DNA from: Escherichia coli
GTDB lineage: Bacteria; Pseudomonadota; Gammaproteobacteria; Enterobacterales; Enterobacteriaceae
NCBI RefSeq assembly: GCF_044324875.1
Contig: NZ_CP172185.1
Strand: one strand, 5' to 3'
DNA: 64,000 bases
Shown here: positions 54 to 8,033 of the stretch, piece by piece
Position numbering within the stretch: position 1 is the first letter of the stretch
Layout of the letters: every line of letters starts with the position of its first letter
Made by a program: the position numbers and the translations under genes
The notes under the pieces: model-generated
What the model saw: the letters and a program-made list of their open reading frames with translations, nothing else
Told to the model about the DNA's origin: nothing
The model's database searches: none

Positions 54-91
54 TACCCATGGGTATTTACTTTTTGGATACCCATGGGTAT
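54..91. repeat. Two copies of the perfect palindrome TACCCATGGGTA (54-65 and 79-90; second extends to ATACCCATGGGTAT 78-91), centres 25 bp apart, each followed by a T-run
   Basis: Read directly from sequence; dyad symmetry typical of a dimeric DNA-binding protein operator. Confidence 0.6.
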
Positions 92-502: not shown

Positions 503-946
503 CAGCTAATCAACAAGGCCAGGGTTGGTAATTAATGACTTCTCCACGGGTGAGGTGGAGTGCGTGCGCCGGACACAGACTGGTTAACGTCGCCTGGAGG
601 CACCAGGCACCGCATCAACAAAGTTCACTTCGGTGATGAAAGGTAAGAGAAAATGTTGAATGTAGCTATTGAAAACCAGTACGGGTGGAATTATAGTGCA
701 CCTGCACCTCATAAAGCGGGTGCCGGGATTGCTACCCCGACGTTCACTAACGCGCATAACCGCGCCCAGGCGGTTTTTTTATGCGTAATGCACAGCCACA
801 TTCAGATTATGGTGGGGCGTGCAGGGCAGCCGCAAGGCTGGCCGGGTTCGTTAGTGACCGGTTGTAGCAACCCTGTACGTCTCACCACCCATGAGATTGC
901 TACCTCCGGTGGTGAGTTAATCAAATTCACTAACGAGGCTGCCATC

Positions 947-1501
947 ATGGCTACTATCCCTACCCTTTCTCACCCTGACATAACCATCAAAAACGGTCGC
1001 GCTGTCACTACGTCTATTGCGATCGCAGAGTTCTTTGGCAAGCGCCATGAACGAGTGCTGGATAAAATTCGCAATCTGGACTGTTCAGCAAAATTCACTG
1101 AGCACAATTTTGTGTCGAGCAAATACACCGACTCAACCGGGCGCAAACTCCCTATGTACCAAATCACCAAAAACGGCTTCGTTTTCCTGGTGATGGGCTT
1201 CACGGGCAAAAAGGCCGCTGCATTCAAGGAAGCCTACATTGCCGAGTTCGACCGCATGGAGGAAGAACTGCGCCGGAATAACACCACACCCGCTGACAAA
1301 ATAATCCCGGGTGATGGCCGCACCCTGGTTATCCGCTTCGACGAACACGGCTACATCAAATTCACCGAAACCGTTCCTGATGGCGCACTGGTCTGTACTC
1401 TGGATACTTTCCGTTTTTATCTGGAAAAGCAGGGATGGACTCTCATAAACCGGGGCGCAATTAAAAATATGACCGTCGAGCAGTTGCTGAGTATTAAATA
1501 G
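947..1501 (+). CDS. Phage regulatory protein, Rha family (about 184 aa)
   Basis: Motif TTSIAIAEFFGKRHERVLDKIRNL typical of the Rha N-terminal domain; GAGG RBS before ATG 947; the track ORF 653-1501 is probably over-extended upstream. Confidence 0.7.
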   Translation: MATIPTLSHPDITIKNGRAVTTSIAIAEFFGKRHERVLDKIRNLDCSAKFTEHNFVSSKYTDSTGRKLPMYQITKNGFVFLVMGFTGKKAAAFKEAYIAEFDRMEEELRRNNTTPADKIIPGDGRTLVIRFDEHGYIKFTETVPDGALVCTLDTFRFYLEKQGWTLINRGAIKNMTVEQLLSIK

Positions 1502-1546: not shown

Positions 1547-1768
1547 ATGATTGCTCATCACTTCGGAACCGATGAAATACCACGCCAGTGCGTCACTCCC
1601 GGCGATTACGTTATTTACGAAGGCCGGACATATATCGCCTCGGCAAACAATATCGAAAAGCAAAAACTTTATATCCGTGATTTCACTACAAAAACATGCA
1701 TTACTGACCGCATGATTAAAGTCTTCCTCGGTCGTGATGGTTTACCTGTAAAGGCGGTGGCATGGTGA
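1547..1768 (+). CDS. Hypothetical small prophage protein (73 aa)
   Basis: Strong RBS AAGGAG 8 nt before ATG; no recognised family. Confidence 0.5.
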
Positions 1769-3990
1769 GCTGTAATAAATAACTGACCCAATACGACATT
1801 CAGCTTAATAAATACATAAGGGTCGATTCTTATATGCCAGCAATGGCAGGGATTCGCACAACCTTAAAACAGCAATGAGGTTTATCAATGAGCACTGATA
1901 AAGAAACTTTTGCGCTATATTGCGAAGCTAAAAATGACAAAGTCAGAAAACGCCTTGGGATTAAAGGTGGTTTTTACTGGACTACAGCAAAAAAATTATC
2001 TGTTGCCATCTCCCGCTGCATTACCGCAATGGATGATAACGATTATGATGAAGACGACTTTAAAAAACCTGTTCGCGTCCATTTGCCCGTTGTTGATGAC
2101 CTTCCACCGGAAGGCGTGTTTGATACCGAATTCTGTAACCGGTATGAAAAAGGCGGCGAAGATGGCATCACAATGATATTTATCGCGCCTCCGCCATCCG
2201 CGCAGGACAAACCAGCCAGCACTGACAACACCAATGTTAATGGCGAAGACATGACTGAGATTGAGGAGAATATGCTTCTGCCGGTTTCAGGTCAGATTCT
2301 GCCTGTTCGCTGGCTGGCGCAACACGGCGGCGAAAAACCAGTAACGCACGTTTCGCGGGATGAACTGCGCTCATTACATAACGCACAGGAAGAAAAACTT
2401 CCCGCCGTTACCGCGCTGGCCATCTCAAATAAAGCAGCGCAACTCGAACCGCTGGAGATTCGGGATTTGTACAAACTGGTGCGGGACACTGACAAAGTTT
2501 TTCCCGCTCCCGTAAATTCAGACCTGGGACTGATGACCTCCTTCATCGAAGCATACCTGGACGCTGACTACACTGATCGTGGTCTGCTTACAAAAGAGTG
2601 GATGAAAGGAAATCGTGTTTCTCGCATCAGTCGCACACCATCCGGCGCTAACGCTGGCGGCGGTATTCTTACCGATCGCGGCGAAGGTTTTGTGCATGAT
2701 AATGCGTCAATGGCATTCGATGTTGCTACAGGAAAACTGGCTCGTTCGATGGATGTGGATATTTACAGCATGCATCCTTCACATACCAGACGTGTTAACG
2801 AAATTATCGCAGAAAATGATCCCTGTTTCTCCGTCTTCCTTAAGGCTTTTCTGAACATGCCAGGCGGGATGGATTATTCCCGCGCCATCGTGGTTGCCTC
2901 CGTGAAAGAAGCACCGGTTGGTATAGAGGCTATGCCCCACCGCGTCACCGAATACCTGAATAAAGTGCTGACCGAAACCGATCATGCCAACCCTGATCCG
3001 GAAATCGTGGATATTGCCTGCGGTCGTTCCTCTGCACCAATGCCGCAGCGTGTAACAGAAGAAGGAAAACAGGATGATGAAAAAAAACCGCAACCGTCTG
3101 GCGCAATGGCAGATGAACAGGCAACTACTAAAACAGTGGAACCGGATACAACTGAACATCATCCGGACACGCAGACGCTGGATGCTCGGCCGCAGGTGAA
3201 TTCTGTTGATGCGAAATATCAGAAACTGCGGGCAGAACTCCATGAAGCCCGGAAAAACATTCCGCCCCAAAATCCTGTCGACGAAGACAAATTGCTGGCA
3301 ACCTCTCGCGGAGAATTTGCTGAAGGGATTAGCGACCAGAATGATCCGAAATGGGTGAAGGGGATTGAAACCCGCGATTCTGTGAACCAGAATCAGCAAG
3401 AAACGGAACAGAACGACCAGAAAGCGGAACAAAACAGCCCAAATGTGCAACGAAAAGAGCCAAAAGCGAAACAATCCGAACCAGTAGCGCAACAGGAACC
3501 GGAAAAAGTCTGCACCGTCTGCGGTCAGAGCGGTGTCGACAACTGTCCTGATTGTGGCGTGGTGATGGGCGACGCAACATACCAGGAAATGTTCGATGAA
3601 GAGAATCAGCCTGAAGTTCAGGAAAATGATCCAGAGGAAATGGAAGGCTCTGCGCATCAGAACAAGGAGAACTCTGGCGGCAATCAGCATCATGCCAGCG
3701 ATAGTGAAACTGGCGAGACGGCAAATCCCTTAATTAAGATAACCAGTCATCACAAATATAAGTCCACAAGCAAAACGTGGTATCACCTGATGATCGACCT
3801 TGAAACAATGGGAACCAACACCAATGCACCCATAGTAGTTATTGGTGCGGTTTTCTTCGACCCGGAAACAGGGGAAATCGGGCCGGTATTTTATATCGTT
3901 ATCAGCCTGACTGACGCAATGAATACAGGGGCTGTTTGAACCGCCCCGGGAATCCTGGAGACTAAACTCCCTGAGAAAGAGGTAAACAGA

Positions 3991-4317
3991 ATGACTAAAA
4001 ATACTCGTTTTTCCCCCGAAGTCCGTCAGAGGGCGATTCGTATGGTTCTGGAAAGTCAGGGCGAATATGACTCACAGTGGGCGGCAATTTGTTCCATTGC
4101 CCCAAAGATTGGCTGTACACCGGAGACTCTGCGTGTCTGGGTACGCCAGCATGAGCGGGATACCGGAGGCGGTGATGGCGGGCTCACCACCGCTGAACGT
4201 CAGCGTCTGAAAGAGCTGGAACGTGAAAATCGTGAACTGCGCCGCAGTAACGATATCCTTCGCCAGGCTTCCGCTTATTTTGCGAAGGCGGAGTTCGACC
4301 GCCTCTGGAAAAAGTGA
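3991..4317 (+). CDS. IS629 transposase OrfA (108 aa)
   Basis: Recognised IS3-family OrfA sequence; stop overlaps orfB start in ATGA. Confidence 0.9.
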
Positions 4318-5204
4318 TGCCACTGCTGGATAAGCTGCGTAAGCTGTACGGGGTCGGACCGGTATGCAGTGAACTACATATTGCCCCGTCAACGTATTAC
4401 CACTGTCAGCAACAGCGACATCATCCGGATAAACGCAGTGCCCGTGCGCAGCGCGATGACTGGCTGAAGAAAGAGATACTGCGCGTATACGATGGGAATC
4501 ATCAGGTATACGGTGTGCGTAAAGTCTGGCGTCAGTTGTTACGGGAAGGAATCAGGGTAGCCAGATGTACAGTGGCGCGCCTCATGGCGGTTATGGGACT
4601 TGCCGGTGTTCTCCGGGGTAAAAAGGTCCGCACTACCGTCAGCCGGAAAGCCGTTGCCGCAGGCGACCGCGTAAACCGTCAGTTTGTGGCAGAACGTCCT
4701 GACCAGTTGTGGGTGGCTGATTTTACTTACGTCAGCACATGGCAGGGGGTCGTCTATGTGGCGTTCATCATTGATGTGTTTGCCGGATACATCGTGGGGT
4801 GGCGGGTCTCATCGTCTATGGAAACGACATTCGTGCTGGATGCTCTGGAGCAGGCGTTATGGGCCCGTCGACCGTCCGGCACAGTCCATCACAGTGATAA
4901 AGGTTCTCAGTATGTATCGCTGGCCTACACACAGCGGCTTAAGGAAGCCGGATTACTGGCATCAACAGGAAGTACTGGTGACTCGTATGACAACGCGATG
5001 GCGGAGAGCATCAATGGCCTTTACAAAGCGGAGGTAATACACCGTAAGAGCTGGAAAAACCGGACAGAAGTGGAGCTGGCCACACTCACGTGGGTGGACT
5101 GGTATAACAATCGACGATTGCTGGAAAGGCTGGGCCATATCCCACCGGCAGAAGCAGAAAAAGCTTATTATGCTTCCATCGGAAACGATGATCTGGCAGC
5201 CTGA
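4314..5204 (+). CDS. IS629 transposase OrfB (296 aa, DDE integrase-like catalytic domain)
   Basis: IS3-family OrfB; overlaps orfA by 4 nt. Confidence 0.9.
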
Positions 5205-5706
5205 GTTCACAGATAAAACACTCTCCAGGAAACCCGGGGCGGTTCAGTTCCTGATGGTGGCACCATCGAATGGTGGCTGAAGCAGTCCAGCGAAGCCAGA
5301 GCTGCCATTTTAACTGACCAGGTAAAAATGAAAGATGCCCTTTTGCGTTTTCGGGAATTCGTCAATGAACACTCCGATGAAAAATTCGTTCAGGTGTGGG
5401 GTAATGGCGCAACGTTCGATAACGCAATTTTGCGCACCTCATACGAACGTCTGGACATCCCCTGTCCGTGGCATTACAGCAACGATCGTGATGTACGCAC
5501 AATCGTTGAGATGGGGAAAATCACAGACTTCAATGCCAGAAGCGTAATTCCATTCGAAGGCGTGCGCCATAATGCTCTGGATGACGCTCTTCACCAGGCA
5601 AAATACGTAACAGCCGCTATACAAAAACTGATCCCGAATCAGGCTGATTTTTAATGTTCAACAGTCGCCAGTTGTCGTTGCTATTCTGCAACTGGCGCGT
5701 TCCGGA

Positions 5707-5985
5707 GTGATAGCCATGAGCGAACAGTACCTGATAACGCTCGATGAGTGGAAACCAAAACGGTTCAGTCTCCCAATAACAAACACTACCCTGGTGAAAT
5801 ATGGAAAACTAGGATACATCGTTCCAAGACCACAAAAAATTCGTGGGCGTTGGCTGATAGATCGCCGGGCAGTATTTGTTGGGCCAGGTGAAACAGGAAT
5901 TGCGCCGGAAATTCATACTGGCGATGATGATGCACTGAAGGAGATTTTAACTCATGTCACCGAGGCCACGAAAAAACAGCACTGA
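5707..5985 (+). CDS. xis: Prophage excisionase-like protein (92 aa)
   Basis: Small basic ORF directly upstream of and overlapping the integrase start by 32 nt. Confidence 0.6.
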   Translation: MIAMSEQYLITLDEWKPKRFSLPITNTTLVKYGKLGYIVPRPQKIRGRWLIDRRAVFVGPGETGIAPEIHTGDDDALKEILTHVTEATKKQH

Positions 5986-7072
5986 CGTAGCCGGTCTTTA
6001 CGAAAAGTTTGATCGCAGAACTGGCAGGGTTTACTACCAGTATAAAAACCCTGTGACTGGAAAATTTCACGGTCTCGGAACAGACAAATGTAAGGCAGAA
6101 AAAATCGCTTCCACAGCCAATCAGCGAATAGCTGCAGCAGAAGCTGAATATTACATGCGCAAAATTGATGAAAGTCCGTCAGCAACAAAACGTCGGGGTA
6201 TCAGATTAAAGGCATGGGTTGAACGATATCTGAAAATACAGGACACACGACTAAAAAATGGAGATATTGCAGCTACAACCCACAAAGAAAAAGCCCGAAT
6301 GGCTGCATACCTGGTTTCCCGTCTGGGAAACCACCCATTGAAAGAACTGGAAGTAAGAGACTTTGCATTGATACTGGATGAGTGGCTGGATAAAGACATG
6401 GTCAGCACGGCGAGAGTAAACCGTGGATTATGGGTTGATATTTATAAAGAAGCACAGCATGCAGGGGAAGTTCCTCCCGGATGGAATCCTCCGGAGGCTA
6501 CCCGTAAACCGATCCCTAAAGTAAGCAGAGCCAGACTCACCCTGGAAGACTGGCAAAAAATTTACAATGCAACGCCTGAAAGGCACTTTATTCGTAACGC
6601 AATGCTTCTTGCAATTGTTACTGGTCAGCGCCGTGATGACATTTGCCACATGCGTTTTTCAGATGTGTGGAACGAACACTTGCATATCACCCAGGGAAAA
6701 ACCGGAATGCGTCTGGCGTTACCGCTTACACTCCGCTGTGATGCCATTGGGATAACGTTAAAAGAAGTTATTGATGGATGCCGAGACAGAATATTAAGTC
6801 CATACCTAATCCATAGTCGGCACCAGAAACAACCAAAACCGATGAGTAAAGACAACCTGAGCGACTACTTTGCCAAAGCACGGGATCTGGCTGGGATAAT
6901 TCCACCAGCAGGAAAAACTCCTCCCACATTTCATGAACAACGCTCTCTATCAGAACGGCTGTACCGTACGCAGGGTATCGATACAAAAACATTACTGGGA
7001 CATAAAATCCAGGCAACCACCGATCGCTATAACGATACCCGAGGTCAGGAATGGGTTAAGTTGGTTATTTGA
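5954..7072 (+). CDS. int: Prophage tyrosine integrase (372 aa)
   Basis: C-terminal catalytic signature HxxR (HEQR) and terminal Tyr (DRYNDTR); N-terminal arm-binding-like region; lies at the prophage/host junction. Confidence 0.9.
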   Translation: MSPRPRKNSTDVAGLYEKFDRRTGRVYYQYKNPVTGKFHGLGTDKCKAEKIASTANQRIAAAEAEYYMRKIDESPSATKRRGIRLKAWVERYLKIQDTRLKNGDIAATTHKEKARMAAYLVSRLGNHPLKELEVRDFALILDEWLDKDMVSTARVNRGLWVDIYKEAQHAGEVPPGWNPPEATRKPIPKVSRARLTLEDWQKIYNATPERHFIRNAMLLAIVTGQRRDDICHMRFSDVWNEHLHITQGKTGMRLALPLTLRCDAIGITLKEVIDGCRDRILSPYLIHSRHQKQPKPMSKDNLSDYFAKARDLAGIIPPAGKTPPTFHEQRSLSERLYRTQGIDTKTLLGHKIQATTDRYNDTRGQEWVKLVI

Positions 7073-7238
7073 CAAACACCATATGGAATATCCGTCACCA
7101 TCTCAGGAAAAAAGTGTTGTAAAATGCGTGGCCTTGTTTTGGGGAAAAGTTTTGGAGAGATTTTGGAGAAAGGAAAAAATTGAATAAATTCAAAATCCTG
7201 AAAGTGCTCCACCTTATGAATAAAAAGGTGGAACTCGA
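7073..7238 (+). promoter_or_regulatory. attR region with three direct repeats TTTTGGRGA (7137-7145, 7150-7158, 7161-7169) and a short open frame ending ...NKKVELE* that overlaps the potC start like the potB 3' end
   Basis: Repeats read from sequence; the phage/host boundary must lie in this interval because int ends at 7072 and potC starts at 7239. Confidence 0.5.
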
Positions 7239-8033
7239 ATGATCGGTCGACTGCTTCGCGGCGGTTTTATGACCGCTATCTACGCGTACCTGTATATCCC
7301 AATCATTATTTTGATTGTGAACTCCTTTAACAGCTCGCGCTTTGGCATCAACTGGCAGGGTTTTACCACCAAATGGTATAGCCTGCTGATGAACAACGAC
7401 AGCCTGTTACAGGCAGCGCAGCATTCACTAACAATGGCGGTGTTTTCGGCGACGTTTGCTACGCTTATCGGTTCACTGACGGCAGTTGCGCTGTACCGTT
7501 ATCGCTTTCGTGGTAAGCCGTTCGTTAGCGGAATGCTGTTTGTGGTGATGATGTCACCAGATATCGTGATGGCGATTTCGCTGCTGGTGCTGTTTATGCT
7601 GCTGGGTATTCAGCTTGGCTTCTGGTCGCTGCTGTTCTCGCATATCACCTTCTGCCTGCCATTTGTGGTGGTGACAGTGTATTCGCGCCTGAAAGGTTTT
7701 GACGTGCGAATGCTGGAAGCGGCGAAAGATCTCGGTGCCAGCGAATTTACCATTCTGCGAAAAATCATTCTGCCACTGGCAATGCCAGCGGTAGCGGCGG
7801 GCTGGGTGTTAAGCTTTACCCTGTCGATGGACGATGTAGTAGTTTCTTCGTTCGTCACCGGACCAAGCTATGAAATTCTGCCGTTAAAAATTTATTCGAT
7901 GGTCAAAGTCGGCGTATCGCCGGAAGTTAACGCGCTGGCAACCATATTACTGGTGCTGTCGCTGGTGATGGTAATTGCCAGCCAGCTTATTGCTCGTGAT
8001 AAAACGAAAGGTAACACAGGGGACGTTAAATGA
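7239..8033 (+). CDS. potC: Spermidine/putrescine ABC transporter permease PotC
   Basis: 264-aa ORF recognised as E. coli PotC. Confidence 0.95.
   Translation: MIGRLLRGGFMTAIYAYLYIPIIILIVNSFNSSRFGINWQGFTTKWYSLLMNNDSLLQAAQHSLTMAVFSATFATLIGSLTAVALYRYRFRGKPFVSGMLFVVMMSPDIVMAISLLVLFMLLGIQLGFWSLLFSHITFCLPFVVVTVYSRLKGFDVRMLEAAKDLGASEFTILRKIILPLAMPAVAAGWVLSFTLSMDDVVVSSFVTGPSYEILPLKIYSMVKVGVSPEVNALATILLVLSLVMVIASQLIARDKTKGNTGDVK

Follow-up and report, generated by a model that had tools for sequence, protein, structure and literature searches.

The RecE protein (exonuclease VIII) of the Rac prophage of Escherichia coli K-12 combines a long N-terminal region with a PD-(D/E)XK 5′-3′ nuclease domain (~600-866), and its gene is part of the early-left operon, with the order kilR, ydaE, racC, recE, recT, ralR, rcbA, xisR, intR. 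It has been established that the N-terminal domain of RecE is dispensable for recombination, yet it enhances linear-linear recombination (PMC11611040). DnaQ-like 3′-5′ nucleases represent one of the four nuclease types found in the Rec modules of lambdoid phages (Zheng et al. 2025, PMC12315714). The same 2025 study also recorded, in lambdoid phages, sporadic DnaQ-type nuclease genes close to int, which it did not count as members of Rec modules (PMC12315714). [quoted passage not shown] Here we describe a gene in which the N-terminal region of RecE is joined to an exonuclease domain of the DexA type. It lies in a stretch of 64,000 nucleotides of E. coli DNA (RefSeq assembly GCF_044324875.1, contig NZ_CP172185.1), hereafter the window, where it has been cut in two by an insertion sequence (IS).

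The two parts of the reconstructed protein

The exonuclease gene occupies positions 1888-5654 of the window and appears in the list of open reading frames (ORFs) as two pieces, ORF 1888-3939 (683 aa) and ORF 5328-5654 (108 aa), separated by an IS3-family element. Once this element and one copy of the GTT duplication that flanks it are removed, 1888-3936 joins 5250-5654 in frame and yields an uninterrupted ORF of 817 aa. The reconstructed protein is 98.9% identical to its nearest intact relative, WP_112037659.1, a protein of the same length named ‘exonuclease’ that is encoded in a complete lambdoid prophage at ompW in E. coli LH50-c.

Residues 58-616 of the reconstructed protein align to residues 50-591 of K-12 Rac RecE with 69% amino-acid identity over 559 aligned residues (BLASTP), and no BLASTP similarity to K-12 RecE is found beyond RecE residue 591, where the RecE nuclease domain begins. 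The DNA behaves in the same way, as window positions 2226-3734 are 78% identical to recE and the match ends at codon 616 with no resumption downstream. A chance likeness to RecE is ruled out by these two identities. The Pfam family Exonuc_VIII (PF06630) is recognized near the N-terminus (Table 1), and residues 1-633 match positions 1-620 of the 877-position NCBIfam RecE equivalog profile NF007259. Since nothing in the protein corresponds to the final 257 positions of the profile, the score is 1010 bits, less than the 1269 bits set as the curated cut-off. As regards membership of the RecE family, the N-terminal region (PF06630 and the conserved core) is present, and the PD-(D/E)XK domain and an equivalog-level score are absent. 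A four-cysteine motif that is conserved in K-12 RecE, C542xxC545-x7-C553xxC556, forms a putative zinc ribbon, and the segments flanking it are acidic and of low complexity, rich in E, Q, K, D and P. The N-terminal part of ~616 residues is the RecE N-terminal region: its head is variable, its core is helical, and acidic linkers enclose the four-cysteine motif.

What follows this region is different. The C-terminal ~190 residues constitute an Rv2179c/DexA-type DEDDh exonuclease domain, which takes the place of the PD-(D/E)XK domain of RecE. Residues 633-805 match positions 2-175 of the 177-position model of the Pfam family Rv2179c-like (PF16473) with an E value of 1.5e-67, and RNase_T only weakly; the domain as a whole spans residues 628-817. 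Its three motifs, MIDLET (635-640), FDNAIL (739-744) and HNALDDA (790-796), contain the catalytic residues D637, E639, D740, H790 and D795. In an alignment comprising 20 homologues, these five positions show little or no variation, and the H-x4-D spacing of motif III identifies the domain as DEDDh type. An AlphaFold model of the domain built on this alignment has a mean pLDDT of 90, and the best Foldseek matches to it in the PDB are T4 DexA structures (8KEL/8KEN, E ~1e-12, TM 0.78), followed by REXO2, oligoribonuclease (Orn), RNase T and a Cas2-associated DnaQ domain. DexA is also the sole PDB sequence that phmmer finds (E 1.5e-8). A phmmer search with the nuclease domain of RecE gave no match to the DEDDh-bearing homologues, and a PD-(D/E)XK nuclease in the C-terminus is ruled out by Pfam, by this phmmer search and by the fold search. 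The likeness to DexA extends to the DEDDh fold and to all of the D, E, D, H and D residues, although the identity is only 24-34%, the extra loops of DexA are missing, and DexA-like enzymes are free proteins of ~190-227 aa, whereas this domain is the C-terminus of a protein of 817 aa. Between fused homologues, the ratio of non-synonymous to synonymous substitution rates (dN/dS) is 0.17-0.27 in the DEDDh domain and 0.26-0.48 in the linker region, low values that indicate purifying selection on the intact copies.

These results largely agree with an initial annotation of the window, made from its sequence, which had proposed a RecE-like protein of 817 residues with a DEDDh domain instead of the RecE nuclease. 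The length is the one obtained by reconstruction. The RecE-like part, placed by that annotation in the first ~600 residues, holds up in a real alignment and runs somewhat further, to ~616; the CxxC-x6-CxxC motif has its four cysteines, with a spacer of 7 residues and not 6. Both the acidic low-complexity linker and the three DEDDh motifs are where they had been described, and the assignment of the C-terminus to DEDDh rather than PD-(D/E)XK enzymes is supported by Pfam and by the predicted structure.

Inactivation by an IS3-family element

The interrupting element is delimited by terminal inverted repeats of 25 nt (3937-3961 and 5222-5246, 92% complementary in a repeat search), directly outside of which lies a 3-bp target-site duplication. 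It carries orfA (3991-4317) and an overlapping orfB (4314-5204), both of which match transposase PHROGs. Terminal inverted repeats, a 3-bp duplication and two overlapping transposase ORFs are the hallmarks of the IS3 family, and the database records that match the element carry the annotation ‘IS3 family transposase’; the element is presumably IS629-like. The insertion took place after codon 683, between Exo motif I and motifs II and III, and the TGA stop of the 683-aa fragment (3937-3939) consists of the first three bases of the IS. With motif I on one side of the element and motifs II and III on the other, catalytic activity is impossible for either fragment, and the window copy is an inactivated pseudogene. 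The insertion is recent, since the DEDDh domain shows no non-synonymous difference from the intact LH50-c gene.

No exact match to the truncated product of 683 aa or to the C-terminal fragment of 108 aa exists in a collection of 15 billion proteins, and the exact IS junction is absent from complete E. coli genomes, where the best match is 99.3%. A 90.7%-identical copy in E. coli PK8241 (NZ_CP080139.1, 835624-836223) spans the entire exonuclease-IS junction (window 3637-4236). An IS3-family element thus appears to sit at the same point in this diverged copy, through either an insertion hot spot or shared ancestry. The features of the gene, the element and the surrounding operon are collected in Table 1.

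Table 1. Positions of the interrupted exonuclease gene, its domains, the inserted element and the adjoining prophage genes in the window
Feature	Position	Strand	Basis or remark
Rha-family regulator gene, upstream	653..1501	+	
kil homologue, directly upstream	1547..1768	+	89% DNA identity to Rac kilR
5′ part of exonuclease gene, codons 1-683	1888..3936	+	ORF list, sequence, reconstruction
Pfam Exonuc_VIII (PF06630) match, residues 57-189	2056..2454	+	E 2.9e-26
Rac RecE-homologous segment, residues 58-616	2059..3735	+	BLASTP, DNA comparison, NCBIfam
Conserved all-helical N-core common to RecE proteins, residues 120-390	2245..3057	+	
Four-cysteine motif, putative zinc ribbon	3511..3555	+	Alignment with K-12 RecE, motif inspection
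DEDDh domain, first part, residues 628-683 (Exo motif I, D637 and E639, at 3796-3804)	3769..3936	+	Pfam, alignment, model, Foldseek
Left target-site duplication, GTT	3934..3936	.	Sequence, reconstruction
IS3-family insertion sequence, 1310 bp	3937..5246	+	Repeats, transposase ORFs, annotation of matching records
Right target-site duplication, GTT	5247..5249	.	Sequence, reconstruction
3′ part of gene, codons 684-817 and stop, rest of DEDDh domain	5250..5654	+	Reconstruction, Pfam, alignment
Exo motif II, D740	5418-5420	+	Pfam, alignment
Exo motif III, H790 and D795	5568-5570 and 5583-5585	+	Pfam, alignment
Excisionase (xis) gene, directly downstream	5707..5985	+	
Integrase gene at prophage end	5954..7072	+	Followed by chromosomal potC at 7239

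Distribution, modularity and operon context

The fused gene belongs to a sequence family that is already known, annotated and abundant, with near-identical RefSeq proteins and PHROGs of its own (607, 2082 and 20376 cover the architecture). A probe of 897 nt that takes in the linker, the zinc ribbon and the DEDDh domain of the LH50-c gene (residues 520-817) is matched over at least 80% of its length in 4077 of 5426 complete E. coli genomes (~75%), with as many as 9 places in a single genome; in K-12 strains the match is confined to the 30% of the probe that is recE. For the first 2049 nt, comprising the N-terminus of RecE type together with the junction, coverage of at least 80% is reached in 339 genomes. 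At 90% identity, the cluster of the window type has 973 members and that of the related Qin type 23,183. The products bear the RefSeq names ‘exonuclease’, ‘3′-5′ exonuclease’ and ‘3′-5′ exoribonuclease domain-containing protein’. A unique domain swap is ruled out by the genome count and the size of these clusters. Searches of the literature on the RecE-DEDDh/Rv2179c fusion and on the ydfE exonuclease returned no paper describing the fusion, and no experimental study or published enzyme assay of the fused architecture.

The Qin-type prophage exonuclease (823 aa) shares with the window protein the linker, the zinc ribbon and the DEDDh half, which are 66-83% identical over residues 465-817, as well as the position before xis and int. 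By contrast, its first ~245-470 residues are of another sequence type that has no PF06630 match, and it matches the RecE profile at positions 271-600 only. The gene order in Qin-type prophages is dicB, ydfD, exo, xis, int, at rspB. In K-12, the ydfE pseudogene (5079-5999 of the K-12 Qin locus analyzed), located after dicB and ydfD and before intQ, is a remnant of this gene cut by IS2E, so that an IS has inactivated this gene class a second time and independently. Stand-alone DnaQ-type nucleases such as gp30 of mEp235 and that of epsilon34 belong to the same domain family (53-63% identity) and also lie in the early-left region near xis-int, but at 182-233 aa they lack the RecE N-terminal region. 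Of 80 loci recovered from IMG/VR by domain alignment, 14 carry the RecE (Rac)-type N-terminus, 31 are of the Qin type and 32 encode a stand-alone protein of ~190 aa; the remaining 3 are truncated or contig-end copies.

The N-core of RecE (Table 1) was in turn searched for among 1.84 billion representative proteins, the long matches being then classified locally. Of the clusters formed at 50% identity, at least 14 join it to a DEDDh domain and at least 11 to the RecE nuclease, and in about a dozen it is joined to neither; these last may correspond to the ‘RecE-2’ proteins lacking a nuclease domain (PMC12315714). The nuclease swap behind the RecE N-terminal region is modular and recurrent.

The window gene is the last gene of the early-left operon of a lambdoid prophage, with the order small ORF, Rha-family regulator, Kil, exonuclease, excisionase, integrase, followed by chromosomal potC. 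It shares with recE a position downstream of kil, but recT, ralR and rcbA, which the Rac locus has, are absent between it and xis; the exonuclease ends at 5654 and xis begins 53 nt further on, leaving no room for recT or bet. The LH50-c prophage follows the same order (Rha, Kil, exonuclease, xis, int), and no annealing protein is annotated anywhere in it. The same arrangement is found in phage Evi and in three other E. coli prophages. In the 80 IMG/VR loci, ORFs were called and phmmer searches seeded with RecT, lambda Bet and mEp235 Erf gave no match within an upstream flank of up to 10 kb; as tested with these three seeds, the adjacent annealase that characterizes two-component recombinases of the RecET/Red type is missing. 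The initial annotation was therefore right that no recT or bet gene stands before xis, and intact homologues in related prophages extend this statement; the rarity that it had implied for the architecture does not hold.

Upstream of the exonuclease gene, segments resembling Rac at 88-89% identity (101-261, 579-630 and, at kil, 1537-1768) form a mosaic, interrupted by the Rha-family gene, which is missing from Rac; racC and ydaE are absent. A terminator-like hairpin with a 16-bp stem and a T run (54-90, plus strand) lies in a segment matching Rac near ydaF/ydaG. On the other side (5954-8033), the end of the integrase gene at 7072 is followed at 7239 by the start of a complete potC. The prophage thus sits inside the potABCD operon, parting potCD from upstream genes located beyond the window.

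Possible functions of the intact protein

With a probability of roughly 60%, we favor the interpretation that the intact protein is a partnerless 3′-5′ DNA-end exonuclease of the early-left operon, in which the RecE N-terminal region acts as a nuclease-independent scaffold or targeting module. To our knowledge, all characterized DEDDh enzymes take nucleotides off 3′ ends, and from its family the intact protein would likewise be a Mg2+-dependent exonuclease removing nucleotides from 3′ ends, with a polarity opposite to that of RecE. It would most likely be expressed when the prophage is induced, through transcription reading on from the early-left promoter, because no promoter-like site was found between kil and the exonuclease start codon. 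Once produced, the protein would trim DNA 3′ ends alone and not as one half of an exonuclease-annealase pair. The N-terminal region would probably serve as a scaffold or targeting module independent of the nuclease, since it occurs joined to either nuclease type.

DNA is the probable substrate because the closest solved relative is T4 DexA. Also in favor of DNA, the stand-alone homologue of mEp235 (182 aa) is located between SSB and Abc2 and beside Erf, within a canonical recombination module of Erf, SSB, Exo and Abc2; the fused form, unlike it, has no annealase nearby. A different substrate is suggested by the names, as the best Pfam family is called after the 3′-5′ exoribonuclease Rv2179c, many database entries are named 3′-5′ exoribonuclease, and Orn, REXO2 and RNase T are among the structural neighbors. 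An enzyme of this kind might, upon induction, trim or degrade small RNAs or the transcripts of phage or host. We consider this very unlikely, given that the nearest solved relative is the DNA exonuclease DexA both by sequence and by fold, and that DNA is indicated both by the fused N-terminal region, which is that of an exonuclease of DNA recombination, and by the presence of homologues in Rec modules.

The likeness to DexA opens a further alternative, that of an anti-phage or superinfection-exclusion nuclease whose DEDDh domain degrades incoming modified phage DNA, the prophage thereby shielding its host. It has been demonstrated that EcD (‘HREX’), an E. coli homologue of DexA, digests T4 DNA containing 5-hydroxymethylcytosine (5hmC), spares unmodified double-stranded DNA and protects against T4 (PMC12153337), and DexA is the closest solved relative of the domain described here. 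The extreme prevalence of the gene in E. coli prophages, at several places in some genomes, would also suit a defensive role. EcD is nonetheless a different protein, as its cloning primers encode a MIDTET... start and a ...TIPETY end (PMC12153337 supplement), which rules out its identity with the window protein. Apart from the low overall identity to DexA, W152, which together with D169 is implicated in 5hmC recognition by DexA (PMC12153337), aligns to a variable position, in an hhalign alignment that is short, ambiguous and ends at DexA residue 162. PADLOC returned only a weak generic DEDDh match, and a known defense system is ruled out on this basis. Moreover, the gene lies inside the early-left operon and lacks a separate promoter-like site, so that no expression would be expected in lysogens. 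A role in defense therefore seems to us improbable.

The preferred reading of a partnerless enzyme has also to be weighed against the possibility of a partner encoded elsewhere, either host RecBCD/RecA or the annealase of another prophage, in which case the protein would be a recombination exonuclease replacing RecE with the opposite polarity. Such a role would agree with the operon position and the N-terminal region that it shares with RecE, and with the setting of the mEp235 homologue. It would also agree with the Chi sites, of which there are 9 in 23.9 kb of the related LH50-c prophage, with its intact gene, versus 0 in 14.5 kb of the Rec-module phage mEp235; this single observation fits the class of phages without a Rec module and with a high Chi density (PMC12315714). 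On the other hand, the RecE nuclease domain is replaced and recT is absent in the window locus. The C-terminal domain of RecE is the part that binds RecT. In addition, a 3′-5′ exonuclease leaves 5′ tails, which are not used by RecA, and int-proximal DnaQ-type nucleases were left out of the Rec modules (PMC12315714). We regard this possibility as unlikely.

Several points weigh against the partnerless DNA-end exonuclease that we favor. For every member of this architecture, polarity and substrate are assigned solely by family membership, and this includes the proposed reversal relative to RecE. The name of the Pfam family leaves RNA as a possible substrate. It has been reported that DnaQ-type 3′-5′ exonucleases usually inhibit recombination by destroying 3′ tails (PMC12315714), so that a pro-recombination role is not obvious. 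Finally, the seeds of the annealase scan were RecT, Bet and Erf, and Sak, Sak4 or annealases of unknown type would have escaped it.

A broader and more tentative proposal, on which we would not rely at present, is that the RecE N-terminal region is a portable targeting or scaffolding module by which lambdoid prophages bring two kinds of nuclease to a single DNA substrate or host partner, 5′-3′ PD-(D/E)XK enzymes together with RecT and 3′-5′ DEDDh enzymes without any annealase. The DEDDh form would then process ends in those very common Chi-rich lambdoid prophages that have no Rec module and depend on host RecBCD. If true, this would give the N-terminal domain of RecE a first function.

As a sequence object, the fused gene is ordinary; what makes it interesting is the function of the protein it encodes, and of the N-terminal region common to that protein and RecE. 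It is present in about three quarters of complete E. coli genomes, and is thus far commoner than canonical recE. The gene class has probably gone without experimental study because K-12 keeps only the IS-truncated remnant ydfE. Two nuclease folds that are unrelated, and opposite in polarity if the DEDDh form acts as its family predicts, occur in combination with the long N-terminal region of RecE, and this makes a nuclease-independent role of the region directly testable.

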